A stretch of 64,000 nt of DNA from a virus (IMGVR_UViG_3300025010_000007:1-64000); one strand, 5' to 3'. Shown: positions 1,834 through 53,627, numbered from the stretch's first letter. Notes: generated from the sequence alone by a model not told the origin. Made by a program: numbers and translations.

Positions 1834-1849
1834 TATTCCATGTGGAATA
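1834..1849. promoter_or_regulatory. parS/NBS-hybrid palindrome, copy 1 (TATTCCATGTGGAATA)
   Basis: One mismatch to the copies at 10920 and 27291; extra GTGGAATA half-sites at about 1780 and 1798. Confidence 0.7.
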
Positions 1850-1974
1850 TTTTGAGCAAAATAGGCCTCGCGAAGGCTTTTAAGATAACTTTAGGTAATT
1901 TATTATATCATAATTGTATGCTTATGCTCTCCTAATTTGGAGGGTATTTTTATTTAAAAACACTCAAAAATGTC

Positions 1975-2003
1975 TTTACATACATGTATGTATGTGGTAT
2001 ATT
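1975..2003 (+). promoter_or_regulatory. Sigma-A-type promoter of the + strand operon with overlapping 16-bp palindromic operator
   Basis: TTTACA-17 nt-TATATT with TG extension; perfect palindrome TACATACATGTATGTA at 1977-1992. Confidence 0.65.
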
Positions 2004-2040
2004 ATATATACAGAAAATGAATTCGAGAGGAGCTAGATAA

Positions 2041-2673
2041 ATGACAACAGCAGAGCTTATTAAAAAATACGATATAACGCTACACACTGAAGGACGAATC
2101 AGAGTTCCTAACGCAAAGAAACTTTCACAGAAAACACGCGACATGCTGATAGCGGCGAAACCGGAAATTATTGCCGAACTGCAACTTCGGGAGCAGGAAA
2201 ATGTTGAGTTGAAAGCCAAGGCCGCCGCAGAGAAGGAAGCTGAAAAACAGGCTATTATTGCCGGAGCAAAAATCATCCAATTGAAATATCATGACGGCGA
2301 GTACCTGAGCGGGCACTTTACGACCGGGCAAGAAGCAAATATCCTGATAGACTTGGGAATAGCCAAATACGTTGAAGGCTGGGGTTGTCACGTAGACAAC
2401 AGAGCTGTTGATGCACTAGGTAAAGAATTCACCTATCAGCAGGCTGTTGAATACATGAGACCGGCAGTAGAGGCAAGAGAAGCTGCACAAAGGGAAAAAG
2501 AAGCCAAGCGTCAAGCCAAGCTTGATGAAGCCAGGGGAACCGGTAAGCCCGTACTATTGAAAAGCTGGAGCACCGGTTGCTGTGACCCAAGAGAAGAATG
2601 TAGTCTTGACAATCACTATGAGTATGCAATGCCGGATGGCAGCGTTGAGCATAAGTGGTGTCACACCTGGTAA
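2041..2673 (+). CDS. Hypothetical phage protein with C-terminal Cys/His motif
   Basis: RBS GAGGAG; 210 aa. Confidence 0.8.
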   Translation: MTTAELIKKYDITLHTEGRIRVPNAKKLSQKTRDMLIAAKPEIIAELQLREQENVELKAKAAAEKEAEKQAIIAGAKIIQLKYHDGEYLSGHFTTGQEANILIDLGIAKYVEGWGCHVDNRAVDALGKEFTYQQAVEYMRPAVEAREAAQREKEAKRQAKLDEARGTGKPVLLKSWSTGCCDPREECSLDNHYEYAMPDGSVEHKWCHTW

Positions 2674-2723
2674 AAACAAAGCCCCGCCGCCGGGCTAAAG
2701 GCGGCAGAAAGGGGAGCGACAAA

Positions 2724-2957
2724 ATGAAAAACAAATATATCGTTAATATCAACGCTAAATTAGAAGAAATTCAAAAATTCAAAGAAGAAGAGGACTATGT
2801 TTATTTTAAAGGTTTCTTGGCTGGATTATTTGATGCAGGGAAATTGAATTTACAAGAAGTGCAGAGTTATGAAAATAAAGCTAAAGAACTAATGGGCTAT
2901 CCTATTTATGAAAATTCAGAACAATATGTAAGGGAATGCAAAGATATAATCCGCTAA
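2724..2957 (+). CDS. Hypothetical protein
   Basis: RBS AAAGGGGAG before MKNKYIVN. Confidence 0.7.
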   Translation: MKNKYIVNINAKLEEIQKFKEEEDYVYFKGFLAGLFDAGKLNLQEVQSYENKAKELMGYPIYENSEQYVRECKDIIR

Positions 2958-3031
2958 GGGAGTGCCGAGAATCCCGGCAGGAGGCGAAAGCCTCCCCAGT
3001 TCAAGGGTTAAATTAAAGGAGGATATATAAG

Positions 3032-3289
3032 ATGAAATGCCCAGCATGTGGCAAGAGAATAGGCGGTAGAGGAATATTTGATCATGGTTTGGTGTACTGC
3101 TCTAATGATTGTGCAGATAAAGAGTGGAGAGAACACAGGGCTGACGAATGGGCAAGGGCAGAGTCAGAAGGAGCGTATACGTGCTACGAGGATTATATGC
3201 AATACGAGTACAACGCAACAATAGCTGACGACCATATACCTGAACATGGCCCAAACGATGAAAATTGGGGTCCTTATGGATGGATGTAA
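3032..3289 (+). CDS. Small zinc-finger-like protein
   Basis: CPACG...YCSNDC; RBS AAAGGAGG. Confidence 0.7.
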   Translation: MKCPACGKRIGGRGIFDHGLVYCSNDCADKEWREHRADEWARAESEGAYTCYEDYMQYEYNATIADDHIPEHGPNDENWGPYGWM

Positions 3290-3296
3290 GACATAC

Positions 3297-3350
3297 GCAG
3301 AGTGACGGCCTACGGGCCGGTAATGCGGCAGAGTGGGTCACAAGCCCCAC
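3297..3350 (+). ncRNA. Twister self-cleaving ribozyme (circularly permuted, P5-type)
   Basis: GCA-GA-GUGA, P1 CGGCC-UACG-GGCCG, G-U^AA-UGC-G-GC, P4 GUGG-GUCACAAGCC-CCAC; P2 (UGC/GCA), T1 (UCAC/GUGA) and T2 (GC/GC) all complementary. Confidence 0.88.
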
Positions 3351-3372
3351 CAGCAAGAAGGGAGATGATTAA

Positions 3373-3567
3373 ATGTACATTGATGAACTTAGAAAACTTT
3401 CCGATGAGCAACTTATTGAGTTGTTTAAAAATGCGGATAAAGAATACGATGATCCAGATAAATTCGACGAGGTAACTTATGATATCTTCGAAATTCTTGC
3501 CGATCGTTACGGCAGCGAGGTTGGTTGGATATTATTTGATGCACTAGAAGAAAACAAAAGTAGGTGA
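3373..3567 (+). CDS. Small acidic hypothetical protein
   Basis: RBS AAGGGAG; 64 aa. Confidence 0.65.
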   Translation: MYIDELRKLSDEQLIELFKNADKEYDDPDKFDEVTYDIFEILADRYGSEVGWILFDALEENKSR

Positions 3568-3571
3568 AATT

Positions 3572-4699
3572 ATGGCACAATACTCCGTTACCCGCTCATG
3601 CGGTCACGATGAAATAGTAAACCTTATTGGTCCACACAAAAACCGCGAATGGCGCTTGGAAAACGTAGAACCAAACAAACTTTGCCATTCCTGCTACATC
3701 GCAGACCTTGAGCAGAGAAAAGCCAAGGCAACCGCCGAAGCGATAGAGGCGGCAAGTGAAATGGAACTGCCAGCACTTGCGGGTACTGAAAAACAGATCG
3801 CCTGGGCTGAGAAAATACGCCAAGATGTGATCGCCAGGGCAGAAGGCTGTATCTATGGGCGTGTGCCCGAAGCGGAGCGCGAAACACTACTGCCGGGGTT
3901 CGATGAACTGCAACAAATAGAGTCTGCCCGGTGGTGGATCAATCATAGGGACATAACGCTCCGGGAACTTGAGAAATTAATGTTGAAAACGGCTAAGGAA
4001 CAGGAGGAAAAACCCCTTGCCGATGCCGCTAAAATTGAAGCAACTGTCAGGCCGGAAAAACCAGTTACCGAAACAGTTGCAGAAATACGAGCTTTGGAAA
4101 ACTGTATCGAGGTGCATTTCCCAGAGAAACGCGACGACTTCAGGGAAATTGTCAAAGTTCAGTTAGGCATGGAGTGGAGCGTTAACCGGTGGACGAGGAA
4201 ACTTGTTAAAATTAACGGCACCCCCGCAGACCGAGCAGCGGAGGCAGGGCATAGACTACTTGCTGCAGGGTTTCCAGTCAGAATCTTTGATGATGAGACG
4301 CGGCAGAAGGCTATTACTGGCACATATGGGCCGGAACATACGCGGTGGATTATGTGTCGTGTTAGCGGTGATTACCTTGGGTATCTTTCGATCAAGTGGG
4401 GTCGTAAGGAGGATTTTTACCGGGCGGCGAAGGGTATCAAAAGAAGTCGCTACTACAAATCAAACGTAGTTGTGCCGCCTGAATATTTTGACGAAGTGCT
4501 GGATTTCGCACAGTTATATGATTTCCGAATCTCTGAGAGTGCGCAGAAGGCAATAGATGTGGCACGACAGGCGCGCGAAAGTATGCTTGTGGTTAATGTT
4601 GTGCTGCCAATCGAAAAAGAGCATGTTGTTGTCAGTGGAAAGCCTCCCGTTTTAGAGGTGCCGGCGGAGGTAGATGTCGCGGATGAGTTTAGAGACTAA
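3572..4699 (+). CDS. Hypothetical phage protein
   Basis: 375 aa; N-terminal CGH..CxxC and LAGTEKQIAWAEKIR motif. Confidence 0.8.
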   Translation: MAQYSVTRSCGHDEIVNLIGPHKNREWRLENVEPNKLCHSCYIADLEQRKAKATAEAIEAASEMELPALAGTEKQIAWAEKIRQDVIARAEGCIYGRVPEAERETLLPGFDELQQIESARWWINHRDITLRELEKLMLKTAKEQEEKPLADAAKIEATVRPEKPVTETVAEIRALENCIEVHFPEKRDDFREIVKVQLGMEWSVNRWTRKLVKINGTPADRAAEAGHRLLAAGFPVRIFDDETRQKAITGTYGPEHTRWIMCRVSGDYLGYLSIKWGRKEDFYRAAKGIKRSRYYKSNVVVPPEYFDEVLDFAQLYDFRISESAQKAIDVARQARESMLVVNVVLPIEKEHVVVSGKPPVLEVPAEVDVADEFRD

Positions 4700-4712
4700 G
4701 GAGGTATATTGA

Positions 4713-4916
4713 ATGCTTATCGAAGAAAAAGGTGGTCTTTATGACGTACATGAGGAATGTGCCGAGGCCGGGGAGTGTGAGCTCCACAAAGCTAAGGACG
4801 AATTCAGCGGGTGCCATAATATTGGTAAAGCATCGTCCTGCTTTTACTGTCTTAATAAACCAGATCATCCACACATAAAATTAGTCGGAGTTTGGGTTCC
4901 GTGTGATGAATCTTAG
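4713..4916 (+). CDS. Small Cys-rich protein
   Basis: RBS AAGGAGG; overlaps helicase start. Confidence 0.6.
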   Translation: MLIEEKGGLYDVHEECAEAGECELHKAKDEFSGCHNIGKASSCFYCLNKPDHPHIKLVGVWVPCDES

Positions 4917-6315
4917 GACTGAGTTAATGTCACACCAGGCCGATGCGGTAAATAAGGTTATCTCTAGCCGCATCGGGGCTTTATTTATGGAAATGGGTAC
5001 AGGCAAAAGCAGAACGGCCATTGAACTAACCGATCGGCGCAAAACCAAAATTGATAAAGCGATCTGGTTTTGTCCGGTTAGCCTAAAAGAAACCGTCCGA
5101 CAGGAGATTTTAAAACATACAGACTGCACTAATGCCGATATATGTGTATTTGCCGACCGTACCAACGAACGTAATGCCCCGGAGGTGCTCTGGTATGTCG
5201 TAGGCATCGAATCTATGAGCAGCAGTAATCGGGTAGTATTAACCATCAACAAGCTTATCACCGACAAGACAATGATTATCCTGGACGAGTCAAGCTACAT
5301 AAAAGGGCACAGGTCGCTACGCACGATGCGGATAACCGAACTATCTAAACGGGCAAGGTACCGCCTCATTTTGACCGGCACGCCGCTGTCCCAGGGAGTA
5401 GTCGATCTATTTTCTCAAATGCGGTTTTTGTCCCCTAAAATTCTTGGTTATGATTCGTTCTACTCTTTTTCCGCGAATCACTTAGAATATTCGGAGAAGT
5501 TTCCTGGTATGATTATTCGGGCACATAATGTACCGTATTTAGCGGCAAAAATCAAGCCTTATGTCTACCAGGTGACAAAAGGGGAATGCCTTGATCTACC
5601 ATCTAAGCTTTATGATACGCGATATTTTAGGATGACTGAGGAACAGAGATATCTTTATGAACGAGCCAAGGATGAGATTCTTTCCGAGATAGAAAACAAC
5701 GACGATTACTTTACGTCTATAACTATTTTTCGTCTATTTTCGGTGTTACAGGGAATAGTCTGTGGGTTCTGGAATCGGCGGGGATATGGTTCTATTGAGT
5801 TTGAACACCGAAGGACAGAGACACTAATAGACACAGTTTATAGTATTCCAAGGGACCAAAAAATTATTATCTGGTGTAAGTATCGTTACGATATTAAACA
5901 CATCGAAAAAGAGCTAACTGATAATTTTGGTCCTGGTTTAGTCTCTATGTTTTACGGTGACTTGAACGAGTGGCGAAGAACTGAGGAAGTAGAAAAATTC
6001 CGTAATAGTTCCCGGTTCTTTTTGGCCACCCAAAGCTGTGGAGGCCACGGTTTAACGCTTAACGAGGCACACTATGTTATTTTCTACAACAATGCTTTTA
6101 AATATAGTGAACGACTCCAGGCTGAAGATCGTTGTCACCGGATAGGACAGGAACACAAGGTGACCTACATTGATATTCAATGTGCTGGCAGTATTGATGA
6201 TAAGATCGCCGAAGCACTGGCCAAGAAAGGGAGTTTAGTACACGCTTTCAAAAGGGAGGTTGATAAAATTAAGGACCAAAAAGGTAAGTTAAGGGGGCTG
6301 ATAAAGTCACTATGA
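4903..6315 (+). CDS. SNF2-family helicase/ATPase
   Basis: MEMGTGKS, LDESS, LTGTP, GHGLTL, QAEDRCHRIGQ motifs. Confidence 0.93.
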   Translation: MMNLRTELMSHQADAVNKVISSRIGALFMEMGTGKSRTAIELTDRRKTKIDKAIWFCPVSLKETVRQEILKHTDCTNADICVFADRTNERNAPEVLWYVVGIESMSSSNRVVLTINKLITDKTMIILDESSYIKGHRSLRTMRITELSKRARYRLILTGTPLSQGVVDLFSQMRFLSPKILGYDSFYSFSANHLEYSEKFPGMIIRAHNVPYLAAKIKPYVYQVTKGECLDLPSKLYDTRYFRMTEEQRYLYERAKDEILSEIENNDDYFTSITIFRLFSVLQGIVCGFWNRRGYGSIEFEHRRTETLIDTVYSIPRDQKIIIWCKYRYDIKHIEKELTDNFGPGLVSMFYGDLNEWRRTEEVEKFRNSSRFFLATQSCGGHGLTLNEAHYVIFYNNAFKYSERLQAEDRCHRIGQEHKVTYIDIQCAGSIDDKIAEALAKKGSLVHAFKREVDKIKDQKGKLRGLIKSL

Positions 6316-7604
6316 GTAAGAAATATCTCAAAAAGAATGTTTACGACGCGGCCCAGGAACGGATTAGAATTATTTTTAATGAGTTCGAGAAAGTTTATGT
6401 TTCCTTCTCGGGAGGCAAAGATAGCGGTGTTGCCCTAAATCTTATTCTCAACTATATGCGAAGTAATAGTATTACAAATAAGATCGGAGTTTTGGTAGTA
6501 GACCTCGAAGGTCAGTATCAAGAGACAGTCAACTACATACAGACGATGCTCGAAAGCAACGCCGATCTAATAGAACCGTACTGGGTATGCTTACCGCTGA
6601 ACCTACGCAACGCTGTCTCTGTATACCAGCCGTTTTGGTGCTGCTGGGAGTCGGGACTGGAGGATAAATGGATTAGGCGGTGCCCGGATTTTCCGGTCAT
6701 TACGCAGCAGGGATACTTTCCATTCTACCGCTACAGAATGGAGTTTGAAGAATTCGTGCCTGAATTCGGCAAGTGGTTTTCTGAAGGCAAAAAAACTGCC
6801 TGCCTAGTAGGTATTAGATCAGACGAAAGCCTAAACCGTTTTAGAACTATCGCCAGTAGTAACAAAGAAACATATAACGGCATCGCATGGACCACAAAAA
6901 TAGACAGCAACCTTTACAACTGCTACCCTATTTATGACTGGAGAACCGAAGATATATGGACGGCGAACGGGAAAAACGGGTGGGAGTATAATAAGCTCTA
7001 TGACCTGTTTTATAAGGCTGGCGTTAGTATCCACGATATGCGAATATGCCAGCCTTATGGTGACGATCAACGTATTGGGATTAACCTGTTCCGGGTGATT
7101 GAACCAGAAACATGGGCAAGAGTAGTTAATCGAGTATCCGGTGCAAATTTCGGCAATATCTACTGTGGGACCAAAGCCCTTGGATATCGTCAGGTACAAA
7201 TTCCTAAAGGGCATACATGGAAAAGCTACACAAAGCTACTGCTTGCCAGTTTGCCACCGGAAACCCGCGAAAACTATGTTAGTCGGTTTATCCGTTTTAT
7301 GCGTTACTGGAATAAAAATGGCTGTGGACTACCGGATGATTGCCTGAGTAAGTTGCCCGCATCCGCTGTAGTAACCAACAAAATAGCAACCAGGGGGCAT
7401 AAAAATAAAAAGGTTGTTAGATATACAAGGATCGAGGATAGTCTCCCTGGTGATATTGAAAGCAAGCACTATGCCCCCACATGGCGCAGGATGGCCATGT
7501 GTATCCTTAAAAATGATCACCTTTGTAAAGGGTTGTCATTCGCTCAAACCAAAAACCAGGCAGAGCGACAGCGGCAACTAATAGAGAAATACCGGAATCT
7601 TTAG
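6312..7604 (+). CDS. IbrA/YbdN-like PAPS-reductase (PP-loop) family protein with DUF3440-like C-terminus
   Basis: SFSGGKDS, GIRSDESLNR, YPIYDW, MRICQPYG, WRRMAMCILKND. Confidence 0.9.
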   Translation: MSKKYLKKNVYDAAQERIRIIFNEFEKVYVSFSGGKDSGVALNLILNYMRSNSITNKIGVLVVDLEGQYQETVNYIQTMLESNADLIEPYWVCLPLNLRNAVSVYQPFWCCWESGLEDKWIRRCPDFPVITQQGYFPFYRYRMEFEEFVPEFGKWFSEGKKTACLVGIRSDESLNRFRTIASSNKETYNGIAWTTKIDSNLYNCYPIYDWRTEDIWTANGKNGWEYNKLYDLFYKAGVSIHDMRICQPYGDDQRIGINLFRVIEPETWARVVNRVSGANFGNIYCGTKALGYRQVQIPKGHTWKSYTKLLLASLPPETRENYVSRFIRFMRYWNKNGCGLPDDCLSKLPASAVVTNKIATRGHKNKKVVRYTRIEDSLPGDIESKHYAPTWRRMAMCILKNDHLCKGLSFAQTKNQAERQRQLIEKYRNL

Positions 7605-7612
7605 GAGGGCAC

Positions 7613-8041
7613 ATGAAAATCAAACGATTAACAAATCAAGATAAGAATTTTTACAACACGCTCGGACCATTCCTGGCCCGTCGAGATATTGAGCGTGAAA
7701 TAGGTTACAAGGTATACGATGATGATGGAAAGGAATGGCTAATTGCTACTGAGATGAATAAAATTATTGGCTTTTGTTATATTCAGGAAAAACCTAAATC
7801 GCATTATCGAATTGGTAGTTGTTATGTTGTTGATAAATACCGGCAAAAGGGGGTTTTCAAAGAGCTATTTAAGAACGCTATTAAAAACATCAAAGGTGTT
7901 GCTACGATGACAACAAAAAATAAGCATCTTATGGGGATGCTTATAAAGCATGGTTTTACAGAAAGTAAGCAGAGAGGTAGCTTTACTGAATACTCAAAGG
8001 AGTTTGGTGTTGATGAAGAAGTTCGAGAGTCCGGTTTATAA
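7613..8041 (+). CDS. GNAT-family acetyltransferase-like protein
   Basis: IIGFC...YVVDKYRQKGVFKELF acetyl-CoA motif A and KHGF motif B. Confidence 0.75.
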   Translation: MKIKRLTNQDKNFYNTLGPFLARRDIEREIGYKVYDDDGKEWLIATEMNKIIGFCYIQEKPKSHYRIGSCYVVDKYRQKGVFKELFKNAIKNIKGVATMTTKNKHLMGMLIKHGFTESKQRGSFTEYSKEFGVDEEVRESGL

Positions 8042-8522
8042 TGTTATAGGTGTGCCGGTTGAACAGGTGATAGCCAATGATTATAATCCTAACGCCGTTG
8101 CTCCACCTGAAATGAAATTGCTTGAACTGTCCATTTGGGAGGACGGCTTTACTCAGCCGGTAGTAACGTTTTATGACAGCGAAAACGATAAGTATATCGT
8201 TGTTGACGGTTTTCACCGGCATTTAATTCTGAAGAACAGTAAGCGAATCTACGACCGCGAAAACGGACTACTACCAGTTGTGGTCATTGATAAGAAAATC
8301 GGTGAACGTATGGCCTCTACTATCAGGCATAACCGGGCCAGGGGTACGCACAACATCGATCTGATGAGCAATATTGTGGCCGAGCTTGTTGAAATGGGCA
8401 AATCAGACTCCTGGATTGCAAGGCACCTGGGAATGGATGTTGATGAGTTGCTTAGACTGAAACAGATTACCGGTCTGGCCACATTATTTAAGGACCGGGA
8501 ATATTCTAAATCATGGGTTTAA
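8013..8522 (+). CDS. IbrB/YbdM-like ParB/Srx-domain protein
   Basis: ANDYNPNAVAPPEMKLL, VVDGFHR, STIRHNRARG; likely start MKKFESP at 8013. Confidence 0.9.
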   Translation: MKKFESPVYNVIGVPVEQVIANDYNPNAVAPPEMKLLELSIWEDGFTQPVVTFYDSENDKYIVVDGFHRHLILKNSKRIYDRENGLLPVVVIDKKIGERMASTIRHNRARGTHNIDLMSNIVAELVEMGKSDSWIARHLGMDVDELLRLKQITGLATLFKDREYSKSWV

Positions 8523-8535
8523 GGAGGGGTTACAA

Positions 8536-8838
8536 TTGAGAAAAAGCCTACAGGACATAGCTCATATGATACAAAAGAGGCCTTATTCGGGGCAACTGCC
8601 GGAGGAATTGAAACCGTACCACTACTATATTTCAGATTCAGGTCATTCTATTATGTGTGTTTTAGAAACGCACCTGGGCGAAGCGCAAAAGTCTAATATG
8701 GATGACTATGAAGTACCAGTGCCGGTTAAATACGTGGTCGAAAAGGGATACAGATTTGTAGATCAATACATCGTCGTTGACGCTGAATACGATAATAATT
8801 TTGGCTTGATGGTGGATGATAGGTATTCTGAATATTAG
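8536..8838 (+). CDS. Hypothetical protein
   Basis: RBS AAGGAGG; 100 aa. Confidence 0.7.
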   Translation: MRKSLQDIAHMIQKRPYSGQLPEELKPYHYYISDSGHSIMCVLETHLGEAQKSNMDDYEVPVPVKYVVEKGYRFVDQYIVVDAEYDNNFGLMVDDRYSEY

Positions 8839-8849
8839 GAGGTTGAGTT

Positions 8850-9002
8850 GTGGCAAAAATAGCTTACAGTACACAAATAGAATATGAAACATTGCAACTG
8901 CTTAACAAATATATCGAGCAGACGGGAGACTCTAAGGCTTCGGTTACTAATGAGGCTATCAAGGAGTATATAGAAAAAAGAATAAATAAGGATAAAAAAT
9001 AA
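8850..9002 (+). CDS. Ribbon-helix-helix DNA-binding protein (50 aa, not in ORF track)
   Basis: RBS AGGAGG, GTG; MAKIAYSTQIEYETLQLLNKYIEQTGDSKASVTNEAIKEYIEK fits the RHH pattern. Confidence 0.7.
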   Translation: MAKIAYSTQIEYETLQLLNKYIEQTGDSKASVTNEAIKEYIEKRINKDKK

Positions 9003-9004
9003 TC

Positions 9005-9027
9005 GCCTACGGGCGGTTTTCTTTTTG
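9005..9027 (+). terminator. Intrinsic terminator ending the + strand operon
   Basis: CGCC-TACG-GGCG followed by GTTTTCTTTTT, between convergent genes. Confidence 0.65.
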
Positions 9028-9102
9028 AGTAAAAAGCCCCACCACAAGGGCAGGGCATAGAAAGAAATTCGCGGTATGTTACTTTGTCCAACATGGGTAA
9101 AT

Positions 9103-9558
9103 TTATGATGCTTGGCTTTCTGTTTCGGTAGCCGGCTGCACTTCTCCGACCGGTGCAACTTCCTCCGGGTCTAGGTCCCCAGCATCCACCTGCACATCAA
9201 AGGACCTCATACTCTTATCAGCAAGCCACGCCTGCTCAATCGTATTCCTAATAGCCTCGTAAGACAAATCAGGTAAACCGTACTTATCCATATTCTTGTT
9301 GAAAAACGAAAGAGCTTCATGCAGCTTATCCGCCCCGTTTTTGTCCTTGAAAACGGTCTCAGCGTAAACGAAAGCCTCATGGCCAAGTTCCTTGATAAGC
9401 TTTTTCTGCGCTGCGGTTGTGTTAGCTTCGAACCAGGCAGCAACTACCGGCTGAAACTTTTTGATCTGCATCCCGACGTAAGAAAATAGTGTGAGTGCAG
9501 CTAAATATACAATCATGGATATTAGCTGGCTAAATGACTGAGAAAGGATTTCTTGCAT
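9103..9558 (-). CDS. LL-H-family holin-like protein
   Basis: N-terminal TM; AFVYAE...GADKLHEAL...IEQAW; downstream of endolysin. Confidence 0.7.
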   Translation of the reverse strand: MQEILSQSFSQLISMIVYLAALTLFSYVGMQIKKFQPVVAAWFEANTTAAQKKLIKELGHEAFVYAETVFKDKNGADKLHEALSFFNKNMDKYGLPDLSYEAIRNTIEQAWLADKSMRSFDVQVDAGDLDPEEVAPVGEVQPATETESQAS

Positions 9559-9694
9559 GGTTTTATACCTCCTAATTAAATTTTAGCCCTAGCGCAAATG
9601 GCTAGGGCATGGTCACCCATAATGGAATCCATTTGGAGTTACTTGGCCATCTGGCACGGGCATCACCTACCTTTCCTTGTATGCCTAGTCATAA

Positions 9695-10444
9695 CTAAAC
9701 TAAAGCACTTTTCTTTAATGTATTAAGCGACACTTTCAGCACAAACCACTTTGGTGCTGATTCATCAGGATCATGGTCCCCGGCAATCAGACCGGCCTTC
9801 TTCGCGTCCTCGATGATGTCAAGTTTCCATTGCTCCGGGCCTGCTTGTACCGACCGTACCGGAATAGGAATTCCGTAATAATTCAAAACCCCATCGGCAA
9901 TGGCCCGCGCAATTCGCTTTTGAAATTCCGGATTGGTTAGTAATTTTTCCTCTGCTGGGTTACTTATAAATGCCATCTCTATAAGTATGGCTAACATTCC
10001 GGTGCGCGTCAGAACGGCGAAATTTGCCTCTTTGTCGTCATCACCGTCTGACCTATCTTTTCTAAATGCTAGTTCCGGGAGTGCAGGTTCTAAGCTGGCT
10101 ATAACGCTGGTGGCCAACTTATCTGACTTGGTATCTCCACGCGAAGTAAAGACCTCAATGCCATGCGCGGAAGGGCCTGCAGCAGAATTGCAGTGAATAC
10201 TAATGAAGAAATCGGCATTCGATTTGTTAGCTATATCAGCTCTGGCTGTCAAATCGGCATTGAGAGTTGTACCCAGCCTGATGTCAGTTTCCCTGGTATA
10301 ACCAATGTCCAATCCGGCGTCCTTCAAATAACCTCCAACCAATTTCGATATAATCAAATTTACGTCTGCTTCGTGGGTTTTGCCTGGGCCTATTGCGCCA
10401 GGATCCGGGCCGCCATGTCCCGGATCGATTTCACCTTTAAGCAT
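9695..10444 (-). CDS. Endolysin, N-acetylmuramoyl-L-alanine amidase (Amidase_3)
   Basis: IDPGHGG, E, FISIHCN, ILIEMAFISN zinc-amidase motifs. Confidence 0.95.
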   Translation of the reverse strand: MLKGEIDPGHGGPDPGAIGPGKTHEADVNLIISKLVGGYLKDAGLDIGYTRETDIRLGTTLNADLTARADIANKSNADFFISIHCNSAAGPSAHGIEVFTSRGDTKSDKLATSVIASLEPALPELAFRKDRSDGDDDKEANFAVLTRTGMLAILIEMAFISNPAEEKLLTNPEFQKRIARAIADGVLNYYGIPIPVRSVQAGPEQWKLDIIEDAKKAGLIAGDHDPDESAPKWFVLKVSLNTLKKSALV

Positions 10445-10856
10445 TTTTACTGTCCCCCTGTCCTGACTTTCCCTTTAAAACAGCAACAGCCTGCTTGATC
10501 ACGTCCGGTACCGGCAGACCAATGCGGCCGGAATTTTCAATAATACTTAACAACTCGTTCGCCAGATAGAAAAATATTGTCGCATCCCTAAAAACATGGC
10601 CCTGGGCAATGGCAGTATCGACCAGGTGGGCCACCGCCACCATGAAAAAGATAGATACTTTCTTGGCTATTCCCCGTAATCCAACTGAGCTGCACAACGT
10701 CCCCTCAATGCCGGCCGCAAGCATACCCGACATGTAATCAATCACAACAAATGTCAACAATACCCCTAATATAGTGGACCAACCCCCAAACAGATAGGAG
10801 GTGATTGCGCCACCCACTGCTACTAGGGTTCTAAAAATAATGTCCCAGCGTTCCAT
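10437..10856 (-). CDS. Phage holin (toxin secretion/phage lysis family)
   Basis: LFGGW..IDYMSG..GIAKK..NELLSIIEN; start MERW after GGAGG. Confidence 0.9.
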   Translation of the reverse strand: MERWDIIFRTLVAVGGAITSYLFGGWSTILGVLLTFVVIDYMSGMLAAGIEGTLCSSVGLRGIAKKVSIFFMVAVAHLVDTAIAQGHVFRDATIFFYLANELLSIIENSGRIGLPVPDVIKQAVAVLKGKSGQGDSKNA

Positions 10857-10919
10857 CTTGCACCTCCGGTAACCAATTTTGACAAATAAAAAACACCCCC
10901 TGGGTGTATCACCTCCAAT

Positions 10920-10935
10920 TATTCCACGTGGAATA
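10920..10935. promoter_or_regulatory. parS/NBS-hybrid palindrome, copy 2 (TATTCCACGTGGAATA)
   Basis: Perfect 20-bp palindrome 10918-10937, intergenic. Confidence 0.8.
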
Positions 10936-26301: not shown

Positions 26302-27171
26302 TCATCTTAACTTTATTGAGTTAAAAACACCTGTTATTTCATCTTTAACTGCTTGAACATTACCGCCAGTACCATCAAGGTCGTTCCACATTTCTTTAAT
26401 TAAATCAACGTGTATTTTTATATACAAATCGTTTATACTAAATACGTTATTGGCATTTTCCGGCAATACTAGTCCAACTGGAAACTCTTCAGTAAATATA
26501 TTTCTGTTTTTATCAATATTAGCCCGGGTTTCATTGGCAAAACTTGCCCATTCAAGTTTATCATAGTTATTTCTTTGTTCGTTATATTTTTGGTTAATGG
26601 AATTATAAATAGATTTTAAAAAGTCTACATGAATTTGCAACTTCTCACTTTCTACTACTGACTGAGGTTTTTGTGAGGAGGCTTTTAATTTTATATCCAC
26701 CTCTCGCGATACCCTCATAATGTTAAAGCCAAACGACTCTTGGACACTATCTCCTTTCAAATACTCCCCATCCTTACCAACCAATTTAAGTACAGAGTCT
26801 GACTGATTACGAGGAGTAAACAAAACTTCAACAACATAAGGACCTATGAATTCAGGGTGATTAGGTGGTAGCAACTCAGTTGAAAACTTTCCATTAATAA
26901 CTTCCACCCCGCTAGTTACTCCTATATATGCTGCCGTTTCTGGACGTCCTGCAACATCAAGGCTAACAGAAAGTTTTGAACCTACAGGTAAATCTGTTGT
27001 ACCGGCAATCAAGACTTTATCATTCTGGTAATCTACATCTAAGATTTCGAGTTTTGAAAATTCATTTGTTCTATCATTGCTTTTATTTCCAACTTCCTCT
27101 TTATCACCTTCACACCCCACCAAAACCACCATCAACAAAGCCATCATCACAAAAAGTAAAATTTTCCTCAC
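26302..27171 (-). CDS. Lipoprotein (moron)
   Basis: Signal peptide with lipobox VLVG-C. Confidence 0.8.
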   Translation of the reverse strand: MRKILLFVMMALLMVVLVGCEGDKEEVGNKSNDRTNEFSKLEILDVDYQNDKVLIAGTTDLPVGSKLSVSLDVAGRPETAAYIGVTSGVEVINGKFSTELLPPNHPEFIGPYVVEVLFTPRNQSDSVLKLVGKDGEYLKGDSVQESFGFNIMRVSREVDIKLKASSQKPQSVVESEKLQIHVDFLKSIYNSINQKYNEQRNNYDKLEWASFANETRANIDKNRNIFTEEFPVGLVLPENANNVFSINDLYIKIHVDLIKEMWNDLDGTGGNVQAVKDEITGVFNSIKLR

Positions 27172-28286: not shown

Positions 28287-28302
28287 TATTTCACGTGGAA
28301 TA
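28287..28302. promoter_or_regulatory. parS/NBS-hybrid palindrome, copy 4 (TATTTCACGTGGAATA)
   Basis: Within a 28-bp near-perfect palindrome 28281-28308, intergenic. Confidence 0.8.
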
Positions 28303-28398: not shown

Positions 28399-28827
28399 TC
28401 ATTTTCTCGAACACTCTATCTTATCTGGCAATGTCTCAAAATCATAATCATCGGGAAAAACATCAATTACTTTCCATCCAAGTCTGTTAAGCTCCCCGTC
28501 TCTTACCCTAGCCTTTCTACTAGAAAATATGGTTTTTGAGGTCCATATCTCAATGCCTACGGAACAGGTAGGAATGCCTATATCAAGATAATATAAAGGC
28601 TTTTCTTCAAATCCCAATAGCACTGGAAATTCAATTGCTGCAACATAGCTATTTTGTATTATTTTAATAAATGCAGACATTTTTAAGAAATAGTGTAGAT
28701 ATGTTTCATTTCTATGTTTACCATATCTACTTCTCAATGATTTATACATATCTTTGAGCGGGAACCCTTCAAAAACACCATTCCTTAAATCTTCATTTAA
28801 TTTTTCGATATTAATGGTATCTACCAC
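28399..28827 (-). CDS. DUF559/Vsr-like PD-(D/E)xK endonuclease-fold protein
   Basis: YYLDIGI..VGIEI..RDGELNRLGWKVI. Confidence 0.6.
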   Translation of the reverse strand: MVDTINIEKLNEDLRNGVFEGFPLKDMYKSLRSRYGKHRNETYLHYFLKMSAFIKIIQNSYVAAIEFPVLLGFEEKPLYYLDIGIPTCSVGIEIWTSKTIFSSRKARVRDGELNRLGWKVIDVFPDDYDFETLPDKIECSRK

Positions 28828-28923: not shown

Positions 28924-29165
28924 CTACTTAACCCGCCTTAACTGGCCCGGAATATTCCCATTAGACCAGCTAAATACAACCTCGCCCTTTAGGTCTATCT
29001 CTGCCTTTACCCGACCCAGGAGAACCCCTACAATCATAATCTTACCTATTTCTGCACCTGCCAAATCGCCGCTATCAATATCCTTATCCACCTGCTCAGC
29101 GGCTTTGCGTAATACGGCTGTTCAAACTGTTCAATTTGAGCCTGATTAATTTGAGGCAGATTCAT
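28924..29165 (-). pseudogene. Small gene with apparent 1-nt deletion near 29118
   Basis: MNLPQINQAQIEQFE continues as AVLRKAAEQVDKDIDSGD...RRVK* in another frame. Confidence 0.5.
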
Positions 29166-30225
29166 GATACACCTCCACATAATTATCATTTACGTTAAGC
29201 TCATTTTCGATCTTGTCCAGCCATTGACGGGCTTTTATAATCGCTGACCTACATTCCATTCTTAATTCGGGCCGACTAATTAACCGAAGTGAACTGTTAA
29301 TTACAAGTAAAGGGGCGGTTTTTTCAATAAAACCATATATCTGCATTATTACGTCAGTTGCCGCCTGTTCTTCTTTACGAAGTTCCGCTTCAGGACTTTC
29401 CCTTAATACCCTCTGCTCCTCATTCAACTGCTTAATCTTTGCCTGGTACCACTTTTGCTCCTCTTTTAGTTTGGATAACTGATCCTTAACCTTTTCCGGC
29501 ACTACCTCCACCGTTACGGTTTTTTCTATGATCTCTGGCTCCTTATTTTGTGCTTCAGTCAACTTTCTTTCTAAATCCTGCACCCGGTTCTGCTCTGCCT
29601 TTGCTTTGGCCTCTGCATCCTTGGCTTTTCTTTCGGCAGCATCAAGTTTAGCCTTTGTTTCAAGGTGAGCCTTATTAATGCTGATTTTTTCCTCGTTGAG
29701 CTGCTGAATGATTTCCGGTTCTGCATGTTCCGCTATGAATTTGGCTTTACGGTATTGTTCACCACTACCAAACCCGATCTGCTCTGCAACCTCGTCTCTT
29801 GAATTGCCTGCTGCCTTACTTCCTGCAAAATTTTGCAGAATGTCATTTCTTGCACCTTGCCTTTGCTTAGCTCGTTCTTTCTCAATTAGTTCAATCTTAT
29901 TGGAAAGTTCCATCATTTCTGTAAAGGTAAAATTTTTCCGGTGTGCGTTTTCTGCACGTTCTGCTTTAAATTGTTGTAAATAATCCTCAAATTCTACTAT
30001 TCTAACTTCAATCTGCTTTAGTCCAAGCGACTGACAGGCTCTAATCCTTCTCTCGCCGGCTACCAAAACATATTCTTTAGTGATTACAGGAGGTTGGAGA
30101 AGCCCTATTTCCTTAATAGAATCGGCAAGTTCCTGTAAGTCTCCTAGATCTTTTCTTGCTCGGTCAACTACTTTAATTTGATTTATATCTACAAGCAAAC
30201 TTTCACCCCCACCTTGTCCATCCAT
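29146..30225 (-). CDS. ParB N-terminal-domain protein with HTH and coiled coil
   Basis: GLLQPPVI..LVAGERRIRA..AENAHRKNF. Confidence 0.85.
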   Translation of the reverse strand: MDGQGGGESLLVDINQIKVVDRARKDLGDLQELADSIKEIGLLQPPVITKEYVLVAGERRIRACQSLGLKQIEVRIVEFEDYLQQFKAERAENAHRKNFTFTEMMELSNKIELIEKERAKQRQGARNDILQNFAGSKAAGNSRDEVAEQIGFGSGEQYRKAKFIAEHAEPEIIQQLNEEKISINKAHLETKAKLDAAERKAKDAEAKAKAEQNRVQDLERKLTEAQNKEPEIIEKTVTVEVVPEKVKDQLSKLKEEQKWYQAKIKQLNEEQRVLRESPEAELRKEEQAATDVIMQIYGFIEKTAPLLVINSSLRLISRPELRMECRSAIIKARQWLDKIENELNVNDNYVEVYHESASN

Positions 30226-47975: not shown

Positions 47976-48437
47976 CTAAATTACCCCCTTATATATATGT
48001 TGCGATCGTATGACAAGCCCGATCTTTTTTTCTGCCCTAATAACAAATCTCTGTACACTGCCTTTTGTGCAGCCCATTAACTTCCCGGCCTGCGCGAATG
48101 AATAGCCTCTACCCCGAACCAAATCAAACGCATACCGTTCCCGCTCGGTCAGGTTTTTCATTAAACTATCCAACAAATCTAGTACATGTTCGGGGGCAGA
48201 TTCTGTAGATGTTCTGTTAGTGATGAACTGCGACAATTCAGTAGGATCAACTGATATTTCGCGCCTGTCTTTAGGCAGTCGCCCAACCTGCCAAGTGGTT
48301 CCTGGTATGCGCCCGGTCTCCATAATCTCAATCGCAAAGCTGGCGTCAGAGATCATGTTGCTGCTCTCCACTGGTACCACTTTAGCTGTACGTAAGTTTT
48401 TTATTGACTGCTTGTATTCCTGGATCAGACTCTGCAT
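47976..48437 (-). CDS. Sigma-70 region-4 late transcription factor (PBSX Xpf-like)
   Basis: MQSLIQEYK..MISD..GRIPG..LTERERYAF..GYSFAQAG..KGSVQ..RAEKKI; upstream of terminase. Confidence 0.75.
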   Translation of the reverse strand: MQSLIQEYKQSIKNLRTAKVVPVESSNMISDASFAIEIMETGRIPGTTWQVGRLPKDRREISVDPTELSQFITNRTSTESAPEHVLDLLDSLMKNLTERERYAFDLVRGRGYSFAQAGKLMGCTKGSVQRFVIRAEKKIGLVIRSQHIYKGVI

Positions 48438-48524
48438 CAAATCCACCCCCAAAAAAATATGTATTAGCCAGGCGTTAACCTGGCTTGTATTGCTTATTTA
48501 ACTAACAATATCTCGCATTGCCTT

Positions 48525-50549: not shown

Positions 50550-50884
50550 ACCTCAACCTCTGCCCTCTCCTGGTGTTTCTTACAGTTATGCCGCCAGACA
50601 TGGGCCTCAACGATCTGTCGATCATCAACATAAGCAATCCCGTTCAATCCATCACATATGGCTTTACTGATATTGTCCCAGTCTCCCGGATGTCCGGATA
50701 CGTAAAGCTTTATCCTAATACCTACGTTTCCCGTAATCATCTTTACCTTAGCCTCTTTAGCCTTCCATCCAACAGCTAATTTATAGTCAAGATATCTCTG
50801 AGCAGAGGGCTTCCATTTGTCCTTCTGCGTCATTCTAACGGCAGGTACTGGCCTTCCTGTTACGGTAAAACTAATTACTGTCAT
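50534..50884 (-). CDS. rusA: RusA-family Holliday junction resolvase
   Basis: GRPVPAVR..GDWDNISKAICDGLNGIAYVDDRQIV. Confidence 0.9.
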   Translation of the reverse strand: MTVISFTVTGRPVPAVRMTQKDKWKPSAQRYLDYKLAVGWKAKEAKVKMITGNVGIRIKLYVSGHPGDWDNISKAICDGLNGIAYVDDRQIVEAHVWRHNCKKHQERAEVEVWEVG

Positions 50885-51182
50885 AATACGACTCCACCGC
50901 CTCCCGCCAATCCTCCGGCCAATCGCCACAATGCACACAATGTTCACAGTCATCCCGGCAGCCAGTATGATGCAACCAGCAGCCGGGTTCTCCTGAGCTA
51001 AGCACTTTTCAACCAGCGCGCCATGCCCTTCAAAATCAGATCCAGAGCCACATCCACAAACTGGCACTTCAAGTGATCCAGTGCCTTGACCTTGGTCATT
51101 TTATTCATGCTCTCATGGTTCTTCTGGCAAAATTCCCTGACTTCCTCAACCTGCTGTTCTTCCTGCTCAGTCCTCTTAGCCA

Positions 51183-53627
51183 TTACATGTACCCCCCCCC
51201 TATGCCAACTATCTGACTATTAACCTGTGCCAACAATCTCCTGTCCTTCTCCTGCTGAATCCTGAACTTTCCGTTTTCCCGGCAATCCCGGAACAGTACC
51301 ATGTCTAACTCCTTTTCGCTCGCTGCGCGAAGTTGAAATCTATACTCATCACTGTCCAAAGGAAATTGCAGTAACTTATCGACAGTGGACATCATTTCAC
51401 ATCCATTGGGTGCTTGTCCTCTAAATCCGGGTAGATATATGCCATTGCCTTGGTTTTCTTGCTGCCCTGGCACTTCCTCCCCAACCCTCTTCCAGCCCCT
51501 CTTTGTCGCATATTCCACAAGGTTCCTCTCAGCCTCTTCCCTGGTCGGGACGTACGGCATCGACGTTGATTTCATGCAGGTAGGCGCATCTTCTCCGTCC
51601 TTTTGGTAGAACGTTCTGTACCCGATTATCCTGCCGCGAGAATTGTAAGTAATAAACAGTATCCGTCCCGTATCGTCTATGTGGTGGCAGGTCTCTCCGA
51701 AAGGATTAAATAGCTCCTGTTTCTGCCCCAAAACTGAAGGTTCCTGTTGCGGTTTTTCCTTCTCCGCCAAAGCTGGGGCTGAAAAACCTCTACAGGCGTG
51801 AAACAGCTTGCTATTTTCCTCGAAACCATGCCAGTTCGTTGCTTTAATACTAAAGTCAGCGTTGATGCACCGGTCCCGTAAAAATCCATTAGTCCCTGCT
51901 GGAGACTTAAATATGCAACCATCCGGGCAGTTGTCGTGAGTGTTATGAGTGCTTTTGTGGTTAAATTCGGGATTTTCTTTTAAAGGCAAAACATTGGATT
52001 CTGATACTGCAGTTTCAAAAACTCCCCGGCAGTTCTTCCACTTTTCTTCCGGATCCTCAGTGTAACTGTCGTTAAATAATTCTGGATTACTGCACCGGTA
52101 ATGTTCTCTCTCCAAGTGCATCACTTTAACTTTATATTTACATTTATCAGGGCAGTCGAAGTGTGTATTCATTGTATTTTGCATGGTATATTCACTGTCC
52201 ACTTCGACTACTACCGGTACCGGCTTATTGTGTTTACACTCGCCGTTTGAACACATCTTAAACGGCTGTCCCTCATTCATCACTGTAACGACGTGTTCAC
52301 AGTTCACCTGGCATTTTGCCGTATACAGGAATGTGTTTTCCATGGTGTAAACTGGTTCCTGCTCCTGCATCTTAAGTTCCCAGCACTCAGGCTCGGTGCA
52401 GCGGAGTGTATGCGTCTCTCCGTCATTCGGGTCAATCAGATATGACTGGCCAATACTGCAGTCGCTGCAGTCAGCATGATCTGGCAGCGGCCTTGATTCT
52501 TCCCAATCCTCTTGTCTACTGGCTTGCAGATCAGCAGCTAATAAATCCCTGCGTTTTTTAGCCTCTGCCAGGAGTATTAGTAGATATTCCTTATCAACTT
52601 CAGTGCTGATGTGGCTGCCAAGCTGCTCTTCTGTCAAACCTTCCGCTACCTGCCTGAGAGTCTCCTTCTGCTCCTCGGATAGTGACTCTTGTTCCATATC
52701 GCCCAGCAACATCACATCATTCCACACGCACCCAATGCCTATCTGTTCCCTATGCATTGCAAGTTTTTTATACTCGCAAACTTCACATTTAAGTGTAATT
52801 TCTTGTTCCTGCACTCCTGCTGCCACTAAAGCCAATCTGCGGGCCTGTTCTGCTGTGACAGTATCTATTGCTGCAGCTATCTCCTGAGAGGATTTTAGTC
52901 CTTCCCTTTCCGCCTCACGCTCTGCTCTCAGCCTCTGCCGTTCTTCCTCTTGTCGTGCCAGTTCTTCCTCCAGTAGCCTTTTTCGCTCGTTTTCAGCAGC
53001 TATCTCCTTGGCCACTTCCTCGCTCTGAACAGCTATTTCTCTGGCTATCTCCCTGACTGGTAGCCCCTTAACAACACTTTCAGCCACACGCTCCATAATT
53101 TCTTGACCAAACATTAACTTTTTGGCGGCCAAAAGTTCTTTGGCGTGACCGGGCCCAATTATTCCACGTGAAATATTTTCCCTCACACTCTCCGGCAGCT
53201 CTAACAATCGCAACCGGTTTGCTATATGACTTTGGCTCTTACCCAGTCGCTCGGCTAACTCCTCCTGCTTCAGTCCGGCATCCAGGAGCAACCGGAACCC
53301 CTGCGCCTCTTCGATGGGGTTTACGTCCTTGCGCTGCAGGTTCTCGACAACCATAATTTCAAGCTCCTGCACTTCATCCAGGCCGTATCGGATAATTGCA
53401 GGTATTGCAGACAGCCCTACTTCCCGTGCGGCTCTCCAACGACGTTCCCCTGCTATCAGGCGGTATGTTCTTGGGGTTATTTCAGCCTCAACTACCACTA
53501 CCGGCTGCAGTATTCCGACACTACGAATACTGGCGGCAAGCTCGGTCAAAGAGTTGTCATCAAAGATTTTTCTCGGATTCTGCGGATTCGGAATTATCAT
53601 GTCAAGCGGTATGTTCATCATGCTCAT
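51183..53627 (-). CDS. Spo0J/ParB-family CTPase with HTH and long Cys/His-rich C-terminal extension
   Basis: NPQNPRK, IAGERRWRAA, ENLQR, HTH QEELAERLGKSQSHIANRLRLL, GHAKELL. Confidence 0.92.
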   Translation of the reverse strand: MSMMNIPLDMIIPNPQNPRKIFDDNSLTELAASIRSVGILQPVVVVEAEITPRTYRLIAGERRWRAAREVGLSAIPAIIRYGLDEVQELEIMVVENLQRKDVNPIEEAQGFRLLLDAGLKQEELAERLGKSQSHIANRLRLLELPESVRENISRGIIGPGHAKELLAAKKLMFGQEIMERVAESVVKGLPVREIAREIAVQSEEVAKEIAAENERKRLLEEELARQEEERQRLRAEREAEREGLKSSQEIAAAIDTVTAEQARRLALVAAGVQEQEITLKCEVCEYKKLAMHREQIGIGCVWNDVMLLGDMEQESLSEEQKETLRQVAEGLTEEQLGSHISTEVDKEYLLILLAEAKKRRDLLAADLQASRQEDWEESRPLPDHADCSDCSIGQSYLIDPNDGETHTLRCTEPECWELKMQEQEPVYTMENTFLYTAKCQVNCEHVVTVMNEGQPFKMCSNGECKHNKPVPVVVEVDSEYTMQNTMNTHFDCPDKCKYKVKVMHLEREHYRCSNPELFNDSYTEDPEEKWKNCRGVFETAVSESNVLPLKENPEFNHKSTHNTHDNCPDGCIFKSPAGTNGFLRDRCINADFSIKATNWHGFEENSKLFHACRGFSAPALAEKEKPQQEPSVLGQKQELFNPFGETCHHIDDTGRILFITYNSRGRIIGYRTFYQKDGEDAPTCMKSTSMPYVPTREEAERNLVEYATKRGWKRVGEEVPGQQENQGNGIYLPGFRGQAPNGCEMMSTVDKLLQFPLDSDEYRFQLRAASEKELDMVLFRDCRENGKFRIQQEKDRRLLAQVNSQIVGIGGGYM
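53160..53175. promoter_or_regulatory. parS/NBS-hybrid palindrome, copy 5 (TATTCCACGTGAAATA) inside the parB gene
   Basis: Overlaps codons N-I-S-R-G-I-I just after the HTH. Confidence 0.78.

Follow-up and report, generated by a model that had tools for sequence, protein, structure and literature searches.

A temperate phage from groundwater encodes an 814-residue ParB-like protein and carries six copies of a palindromic site, TATTYCAYGTGRAATA, that combines features of the chromosomal parS site and the Noc-binding site (NBS). We consider it very probable, judging from residues, sites and relatives, that the two form a cognate pair, an orphan ParB with its predicted loading sites. The explanation that fits the observations best overall, and that we regard as probable, is that this pair would act as a phage-specific regulatory or organising clamp. 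The narrower question of function, regulation or organisation instead of segregation, is answered more tentatively, with somewhat less than even confidence.

The phage genome and its hybrid sites

The window, the whole stretch of 64,000 nucleotides that was analysed, comprises the first 64 kb of an IMG/VR virus record that is 80,469 bp long, carries direct terminal repeats of 164 bp and has a CheckV completeness of 100%. The phage is temperate, the complete record encodes a tyrosine integrase, and its host is an uncultured, Clostridia-like groundwater organism. The nearest named match in a search for TerL homologues was "MAG: Clostridia bacterium" at 73%, and the DNA matches in a search of sequencing runs were groundwater metagenome runs, which may be the source sample, with no RNA run among them.

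Pattern matching located the five palindromes of the window that the initial annotation had described. None is expected in the window, and 100 dinucleotide-preserving shuffles gave no match. A sixth copy lies at 73623–73638 of the complete phage. The sites in the window, listed without strand, are as follows.

1834–1849: variant site TATTCCATGTGGAATA, intergenic, about 330 bp upstream of an HTH_3 gene (1108–1503, minus strand)
10920–10935: hybrid site, intergenic; read on the minus strand, a terminator-like hairpin (10907–10893) follows just 3' of it, and the holin and amidase genes lie downstream
27291–27306: hybrid site within a 22-bp palindrome, intergenic, between genes at 26302–27171 (minus strand) and 27561–28223 (minus strand)
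28287–28302: hybrid site, intergenic, between genes at 27561–28223 (minus strand) and 28399–28827 (minus strand)
53160–53175: hybrid site in parB; on the coding strand it comprises the last base of the N151 codon and the I-S-R-G-I codons (ATT TCA CGT GGA ATA)

The five copies other than the parB copy all lie outside open reading frames of at least 120 residues, which agrees with the earlier description of four intergenic sites in the window and one inside parB. The flanking bases were also described correctly, with AT directly 5' of all six sites and AAT at five of them; two of the six extend to a 22-bp palindrome. The site at 1834 has a CATGTG core with its arms kept, and two additional half-sites lie nearby at 1780 and 1798. 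This variant is also present in one relative (G002), and its position is syntenic in another locus (L031). In three loci (L241, L031 and L010) a holin homologue again has a site upstream of it. The hexamer CACGTG is confined to the five CACGTG-containing sites, with no occurrence elsewhere against about nine expected, and beyond the sites no other 6-bp palindrome is depleted as strongly. A search of the window that tolerated up to three mismatches gave no site with a CCCGGG core, and a literature search on the site sequences found no paper.

A long orphan ParB with a cysteine-rich extension

The protein and its recognizable domains are encoded as follows.

51183–53627, minus strand: parB, encoding an orphan ParB of 814 residues
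53334–53621, minus strand: ParB_N, CTPase-fold domain, residues 3–98, containing Box II (GERRWRA) and Box III (ENLQR)
53034–53330, minus strand: HTH_ParB DNA-binding domain, residues 100–198, carrying the four specificity positions

By its profile scores, the protein is a member of the ParB/RepB/Spo0J superfamily, exceeding the curated cut-offs of PF02195 (ParB_N; 94.3 bits, cut-off 26.3), PF17762 (HTH_ParB; 80.6 bits, cut-off 22.6) and TIGR00180 (156.7 bits, cut-off 58.45). The KorB domain PF08535 also matches over the HTH region with 31 bits. The protein is not a Noc, because it scores 187 bits with the Noc model TIGR04285, below the cut-off of 315; its Q/R/E/G residues instead of Q/K/K/R, and sites without C6, are also not those of a Noc. 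Among proteins of solved structure it is closest to Spo0J, ParB and Noc, and the ParB core is 40–45% identical to chromosomal Spo0J/ParB. Four full-length orthologues were found (P0001–P0004), and the named relatives come from the spore-forming lineages Desulfocucumis, Peptococcaceae and Clostridia. The motifs AGERRWRAA and ENLQRKD are present, with G60, E61, R62, R63, R65, A67, N96, Q98 and R99 invariant in the family alignment (A1). The nucleotide preference of the ParB-CTPase fold is reported not to be predictable from sequence (PMC12704722).

Beyond the HTH domain, a long helix or coiled coil (residues ~191–270) precedes a cysteine-rich C-terminal extension of about 550 residues, for which there was no family match. 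The C-terminal dimerisation domain PF23552 had no Pfam match in the phage protein and is missing from the Pfam lists of its Q-type relatives (Gln at the 173-equivalent), while R-type matches (Arg at that position) carry it; the phage protein may have another dimerisation element. Full-length AlphaFold2 prediction from a five-row alignment gave a poor model (mean pLDDT 45, pTM 0.23), and an ESM Atlas search with residues 260–814 returned no usable feature match, the structure matches all having a query TM below 0.3.

Four residues predict the hybrid site

HMMER alignments to the ParB proteins of T. thermophilus, B. subtilis and M. xanthus place Q132 (53232–53234), R138 (53214–53216), E143 (53199–53201) and G160 (53148–53150) at the equivalents of Caulobacter residues 173, 179, 184 and 201, the assignment initially made. 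The ParB/Noc recognition code, as given in the initial annotation, agrees with its source paper: Q173 favours adenine 1 and R201 cytosine 6, basic residues at 179 or 184 have a permissive effect, and the engineered variants QKAG, QTKG and QKKG shift to a site combining parS and NBS features (PMC7383237). Applied to Q/R/E/G, this code gives an A1/A6 site, so that the residues predict the site observed, as had been proposed (PMC7383237). The hybrid site differs from parS at the second and fifteenth base only. Q132 would read the outer adenine as in Noc, G160 would leave the inner A:T pair as in parS, and R138 would provide the permissive basic contact; the protein is therefore predicted to use TATTYCACGTGRAATA for nucleation, but neither host parS nor NBS. 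The term natural specificity intermediate thus stands as a description of the residues, but not as an evolutionary position, because the tree does not resolve the backbone of ParB, Noc and the phage clade.

The copy inside parB adds a constraint at the level of DNA. ISRGI is a conserved peptide with fixed codons, and the position of the in-gene site together with its TCA-CGT codons is common to all 11 clade members read at the DNA level (the query and 10 relatives). The Ser and Arg codons within the site are invariably TCA and CGT, whereas the flanking Arg and Ser codons vary. With its putative loading site written in the ISRGI codons of its own DNA-binding domain, the protein would be inherited together with the site.

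Site and protein occur together

The long ParB clade of mobile elements carries Q/R/[EDRK]/[GSA] throughout. A single full-length protein as query found nothing in IMG/VR, whereas an alignment-based, protein-first scan, with patterns taken outside the ISRGI region, did find members. The exact 16-mer is present in eight of the nine viral clade members, and the ninth has the 14-bp core. This comparative evidence bears out the co-occurrence of motif and Q-type ParB that the initial annotation had proposed to examine. Across all viral Q..G/S loci, the 16-mer was found in 8 of 16 and parS or NBS in none of the 16, and the same scan found no 16-mer at viral loci of other residue classes. Q-type ParBs further removed, at less than about 49% identity, lacked the hybrid site. 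In the other direction, starting from the site, a ParB homologue with Q at the 173-equivalent and G or S at the 201-equivalent was encoded at 10 of the 111 loci with a hybrid site; eight of the ten carry R at 179 and belong clearly to the clade, the other two are weak matches (30–39%), and in nine the site lies inside the ParB gene. No Q-type ParB was encoded at 119 parS-bearing viral loci; with almost no ParB of any kind beside viral parS, this control shows only that Q-type proteins are not near parS, and it offers no counterpart pairing of R-type ParB with viral parS.

A scan of genome contigs returned mostly chromosomal ParB and Noc and found no close relative or host. Its chromosomal loci were used as a control set, and 80 R..G ParB loci among them contained 94 parS and no hybrid sites. 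The motif is also missing from 397 of the 401 Bacillota genomes sampled, the other four having two single matches and two clusters. These two surveys rule out that the motif is the host parS, and the site is distinct from host chromosomal parS and NBS, as originally argued. The distinction is also seen within one genome (G090), where three ParB/Noc paralogues coexist with three site types: an RTQG ParB with a canonical parS about 0.9 kb from the gene; a QKRR Noc-like gene, for which the one perfect NBS 14-mer of the genome falls about 100 bp past the aligned region and probably still within the open reading frame; and a QRKG ParB of 538 residues, which has a hybrid site in its gene and another two elsewhere on that contig (C63).

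Copies outside parB occur in relatives too (G002, G003, G005, G007, G418 and G090). A complete provirus (G004) has the in-gene site only; multiple dispersed sites are not obligatory. Sites without the protein, which had been named as evidence against the pairing, do occur, but only in incomplete records. In one such record (G009), which has three sites, the ParB (161 residues) breaks off after Box III, and three others and a MAG (G010, G415, G416 and G044) have sites and no Q-type ParB that could be found; all records with at least two sites and no intact Q-type ParB are incomplete (viral records 32–65%).

A putative clamp without partition partners

The system was initially labelled a candidate centromere. 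The window was reported to lack parA, and this extends to the whole phage, as PF13614 and PF01656 had no match in the complete 80-kb record, with controls positive in 14 of 14 genomes. The ParA-binding motif [LFI]G[KR]G[LFI] is absent from the phage ParB and from all 36 clade members, whereas 65 of the 82 other long ParB homologues, most of them R-type, carry it. There is also no room for an N-terminal ParA-activating peptide, because ParB_N begins at residue 3. The parB gene lies in a replication-to-packaging module with replication genes (DnaD loader, DnaB), RusA and terminase genes, and is not adjacent to lysogeny genes. Among canonical ParABS features, predicted cognate sites are thus present (six), and ParA, the ParA motif and PF23552 are absent. 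These features, together with the integrase, do not sustain the centromere or segregation label, and a plasmid-type centromere is unlikely in a phage that integrates, lacks both ParA and a ParA-activating peptide, and carries parB in the replication-to-packaging block.

Segregation or positioning might nevertheless be achieved if the complexes were moved by host ParA/Soj or another host machine, for partition of a replicating or pseudolysogenic genome or for forespore entry. Dispersed parS-type sites on a phage are known to serve spore entrapment in phi29 (PMC2731898), and both the 40–45% identity of the core to chromosomal Spo0J/ParB and the spore-forming relatives would fit such a role. The absence of ParA and its motif, the start of ParB_N at residue 3, the integrase and the position of parB among lytic replication genes all argue against it, and we consider it unlikely.

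Since the ParB-CTPase motifs are intact, nucleation would most likely be followed by NTP-dependent closure of a clamp, probably with CTP. The closed clamp would slide across phage DNA from six entry points, one of them within parB, and could provide a phage-specific DNA mark used after infection or induction. The large cysteine-rich C-terminal region might then confer long-range control or organisation of the lysis, structural and lysogeny modules in the manner of KorB and BisD; this analogy is our leading guess for the downstream role. Promoter-like hexamers showed no constant distance from the sites, and promoter-like matches near the sites were no commoner than in shuffles, which counts against a regulatory role.

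Chromosomal ParB-parS loads SMC in Bacillota. The phage clamps might likewise recruit host SMC/condensin, or compact or resolve replicating DNA before packaging, with no role in transcription. The location of parB between the DnaD loader/DnaB, RusA and terminase genes is in line with this, as is the position of one site in a relative, some 460 bp upstream of terS. However, the sequence has no sign of an SMC contact, known ParBs do not require a large cysteine-rich extension for SMC loading, and site positions are kept beside lysis and HTH genes, not around a replication origin, which makes this role improbable.

It is much less likely still that the palindromes are operators of some other protein, such as the Xre-type HTH protein (1108–1503), a second ParB-like protein (29146–30225) or a host factor, the in-gene copy being a by-product of ISRGI. 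The site at 1834 does lie upstream of the HTH_3 gene, and L031 keeps this gene-site pair, with no ParB found there; the second ParB_N protein is encoded near the sites at 27291 and 28287; and an intact Q-type ParB is missing from G009, G010 and G044 despite their sites. However, contig C63 of G090 has three sites and a Q-type ParB with no HTH_3 homologue, and the second ParB is matched there in the shared N-domain only. The ParB-less records are incomplete, TCA-CGT is invariant while synonymous codons around it vary, and the four-residue code independently predicts the exact site. That the palindromes are restriction-modification or methylation targets with a CACGTG core, tied to the C5 DNA methyltransferase encoded about 1 kb from parB (an adjacency kept in L239 and L018), would fit the CACGTG depletion, but this has a negligible probability and is rejected on the conservation over 16–22 bp instead of 6, the CATGTG core with retained arms at 1834, and the depletion itself, which argues that the site copies are kept for another reason.

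A regulatory or organising clamp could be set in a wider frame. There might be a third natural specificity class, with Q173, a basic residue at 179 and a small residue at 201 reading TATTNCACGTGNAATA, on long orphan ParBs of Clostridia-like mobile elements, where it would build its own clamp-coated domain beside host ParB-parS and Noc-NBS for long-range gene control and not segregation. We give this full proposal close to, but just short of, an even chance. Orphan ParBs are frequent on prophages (PMC12704722).

Relation to known ParB systems

The closest counterparts in specificity are PtoN5 (QKAG), PtoN6 (QTKG) and PtoN11 (QKKG) of Jalal et al. 2020 (PMC7383237), which share Gln173, Gly201 and a basic side chain at 179 or 184 with the phage ParB. 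They are laboratory mutants of chromosomal ParB (PMC7383237), whereas the phage protein belongs to a natural clade in which position 179 is Arg instead of Lys and position 184 is usually acidic; its C-terminal half also differs, and it lacks a ParA partner. If our reading is correct, the phage protein would be the first equivalent from nature of the intermediates engineered between ParB and Noc: hybrid specificity would be used in nature and not just be reachable in the laboratory, and R173 would not be universal among parS-like readers. The four-residue code would gain a test on natural proteins in the three paralogues and three site types of G090, and the pair would be a candidate third orthogonal ParB/site pair for DNA labelling, beside the ParB-parS and Noc-NBS tools. 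The clade also points to unexplored ParA-less ParB clamps with large cysteine-rich effector regions in temperate phages, which could serve in regulation, DNA organisation or spore carriage.

Noc and NBS resemble the phage system as an orphan ParB paralogue without ParA, with Gln at 173 reading the outer adenine and with many dispersed sites. They differ in that R201 of Noc reads C6, whereas the phage ParB has G160 and A6 sites, is phage-encoded, is 814 residues long and scores well below the Noc cut-off. N15, a plasmid prophage with SopA/SopB and dispersed centromere sites, shares the dispersal of sites, but the present phage integrates. Several ParB-type sites are likewise spread across the phi29 genome; phi29, however, borrows host Spo0J through five host-type parS, whereas the present phage brings its own ParB and a private site and integrates (PMC2731898).

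BisD of ICEclc is a ParB-like clamp acting in regulation on an integrative element, with an extra effector domain, and both BisD and KorB of RK2 are CTP clamps that load at few specific sites, slide over tens of kilobases and control promoters (PMC12409273). The architecture and site distribution of the phage ParB fit this pattern, with homology taken at the ParB core, but the likeness is tentative: the site sequence is unrelated, and neither a partner of the BisC/KorA type nor a relation of the sites to promoters was found in the phage.

Chromosomal ParB/Spo0J shares the fold, the motifs and a site inside its own gene (parS in spo0J), but has R173 where the phage has Q, and the phage lacks ParA, the ParA motif and PF23552. 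The in-gene sites also lie in different places: in three Bacillaceae loci (L356, L358 and L374) parS is near the end of the parB match, whereas the phage site occupies codons 151–156, within the DNA-binding domain.

The phage ParB and its hybrid sites

The palindrome TATTYCAYGTGRAATA, which the initial annotation had placed at five positions, was recovered at all five by a pattern search of the window, with no matches in 100 shuffled versions, and a sixth copy was found outside the window in the same phage, whose complete record comprises 80,469 bp with 164-bp terminal repeats, the window covering the first 64 kb.

1834, 10920, 27291 and 28287: palindrome copies, intergenic
51183..53627 (-): gene of the phage ParB (814 aa)
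53160: palindrome copy inside the ParB gene
73623: sixth palindrome copy, intergenic
73793-75016: tyrosine integrase gene, beginning 170 bp downstream of the sixth copy

The proposed placement, with one copy in parB and the others intergenic, holds also for the additional copy. AT directly precedes every copy, and two copies extend to 22-bp palindromes. Across the whole phage genome, isolated half-sites (TATTYCAC) are enriched (17 observed vs 6.7 ± 2.5 expected). CACGTG is the most depleted 6-bp palindrome, confined to the five CACGTG-containing ParB sites and occurring elsewhere 0 times vs ~9 expected; the sites have therefore been retained in a genome otherwise avoiding their core. Depletion is common to many other 6-bp palindromes of this genome, which suggests restriction avoidance.

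ParB_N and HTH_ParB match residues 3-198 of the phage ParB, and TIGR00180 also matches; the Noc score is far under the cut-off, and the nearest solved relatives are Spo0J, ParB, and Noc. In the C-terminal ~600 residues, CxxC...C modules recur alongside a long helix and terminal blocks that are conserved; family and fold searches gave no assignment for this region. In alignments, the four specificity positions (173, 179, 184, and 201 in Caulobacter ParB) are occupied by Q132, R138, E143, and G160, the same residues as originally read. The recognition code given in the initial annotation agrees with its source, in which adenine 1 goes with Q173 and cytosine 6 with R201, a basic residue at either 179 or 184 acting permissively (PMC7383237). 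Engineered QKAG, QTKG, and QKKG variants, named by the residues at these positions, led to a site combining parS and NBS (Noc site) features, and R173 and G201 were said to be invariant across extant orthologues of ParB (PMC7383237). The phage sites, with adenine at positions 1 and 6, are the combination that the ParB residues predict, as had been claimed. Sequence comparison supports this reading of the specificity code well, and the phage ParB with its sites is a new natural variant within the ParB/Noc kind.

On the coding strand, the in-gene site reads (AA)T ATT TCA CGT GGA ATA, encoding N-I-S-R-G-I, a stretch flanked by the recognition helix and G160. In the DNA of ten relatives and the query, its Ser and Arg codons are TCA and CGT without exception, while Arg/Ser codons slightly further off differ freely among the same clade members, which points to selection acting on the DNA in addition to the peptide. 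In Bacillaceae (L356, L358, L374), parB likewise holds a parS, but close to where the aligned region ends, so the phage placement arose at a different spot.

Co-occurrence of the ParB clade and the sites

Whether the pairing of ParB and site is more than a single-genome coincidence is answered in the affirmative by five independent lines of sequence comparison. A homologue search returned four full-length orthologues and ~40 more long proteins (470-890 aa), all with Q at 173, R at 179, E/D/R at 184, and G/S/A/T at 201; the long homologues with Q at 173 (Q-type) group as one clade (44 rows, SH-aLRT 90). When IMG/VR was scanned for the 16-mer, 10 of the 111 loci found proved to code for a homologue of ParB whose 173-equivalent residue is Q and whose 201-equivalent residue is G or S; eight, with R at 179, are clear clade members, the other two (L033 and L068) being weak matches of 30-39%. 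The site lies within the ParB gene in nine of these ten, and such a Q-type ParB was present at none of 119 loci in a control scan for canonical parS. In a protein-first scan, with search patterns excluding the site-encoding peptide, the exact 16-mer was present in 8/9 viral clade members and its 14-bp core in the ninth, the co-occurrence in related phages that the initial annotation had put forward as a check, and in no viral locus of any other residue class. Chromosomal R..G ParB loci (n = 80) gave 0 hybrid sites vs 94 parS, and 16 viral Q..G/S loci gave neither parS nor NBS. Among 401 Bacillota genomes, four contain the 16-mer, two as single matches and two as clusters; the phage host was placed no closer than "Clostridia-like, groundwater".

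Some genomes depart from this pattern. G009 has three hybrid sites, and its ParB (L268 10001-10480; 161 aa) lacks an HTH, ending after Box III in a short tail with CxxC; truncation of the gene, misassembly, or a split system could account for this. No Q-type ParB was found in G010, G415, G416, and G044, all incomplete, with at least two sites each. The in-gene copy is the sole hybrid site of the complete provirus G004. In provirus L247 (8528-11356), the Q-type ParB domain is preceded by ~490 residues of a 942-aa open frame, suggesting an N-terminal fusion. Separately, on some IMG/VR viral contigs (L127, L156, L157, L136, L155) canonical parS are clustered in groups of 3-5, the retrieved flanks containing no ParB homologue; these may use the host ParB.

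The Bacillota genome G090 (contigs C62, C12, and C63; loci L411, L412, and L407/L415/L416) encodes three paralogues, and in or close to the gene of each lies a different type of site, which makes this genome a naturally occurring trio on which the specificity code could be tested.

Table. ParB paralogues of G090 and their sites.
RTQG ParB: canonical parS ~0.9 kb from the gene
QKRR Noc-like gene: the genome's only perfect NBS 14-mer, ~100 bp past the aligned part, probably inside the ORF
QRKG mobile-element ParB (538 aa): hybrid sites, one inside the gene, two elsewhere on that contig, and one on a different contig

Possible role of the phage ParB

The centromere function originally proposed is not supported. 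The complete phage encodes an integrase, and no ParA was found in it, extending the earlier remark on the window. The ParB_N domain forms the very start of the phage ParB; the ParA motif [LFI]G[KR]G[LFI] is missing from it and from 36/36 clade members, and is present in 65 of 82 other long ParB homologues, mostly R-type. The Pfam ParB C-terminal dimerisation domain was not found in the phage protein. The gene order (DnaD-like loader, DnaB, C5 methyltransferase, ParB, RusA, sigma factor, TerS, TerL) is that of a lytic replication-to-packaging block. Orphan ParBs of prophages are a known class (PMC12704722).

The extra sites take recurring positions among relatives. A site upstream of the holin gene is common to the window, L241, L031, and L010, one upstream of an Xre-type gene to the window and L031, and another lies upstream of terS in L247. 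In the window and L031, the variable block that separates the Xre gene from the lysis genes is flanked by two hybrid sites, its plus-strand cargo measuring 7.9 kb (window 1834-10935) vs ~2.4 kb (L031 2152-6016). Terminator-like hairpins adjoin two sites, and promoter-like hexamers are no commoner around the sites than in shuffled sequence. By analogy with BisD of ICEclc and KorB of RK2, we favour a clamp that would load at the hybrid sites and spread over the phage DNA, its C-terminal region controlling or organising neighbouring modules. The phage ParB may otherwise serve SMC loading, or phi29-like carriage into the spore or daughter cell.

Besides this putative clamp, a second ParB_N protein (window 29146-30225 (-), 359 aa, with a GERRIRA motif and coiled-coil tail) is encoded ~0.9 kb from the site at 28287; no specific orthologue was found in other site-bearing loci. 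A 1275-aa protein (genome 63396-67223; L008 1396-5223, (-)) combines in one chain a calcineurin-like, Mre11/SbcD-like phosphoesterase and a Rad50/SbcC-like AAA_23 domain. The phage sigma factor gene (window 47976-48452 (-)), situated between parB/RusA and the terminase genes, is 85-90% identical in the ParB-sharing relatives L239 and L240 and is a candidate activator of late genes, perhaps acting together with ParB.
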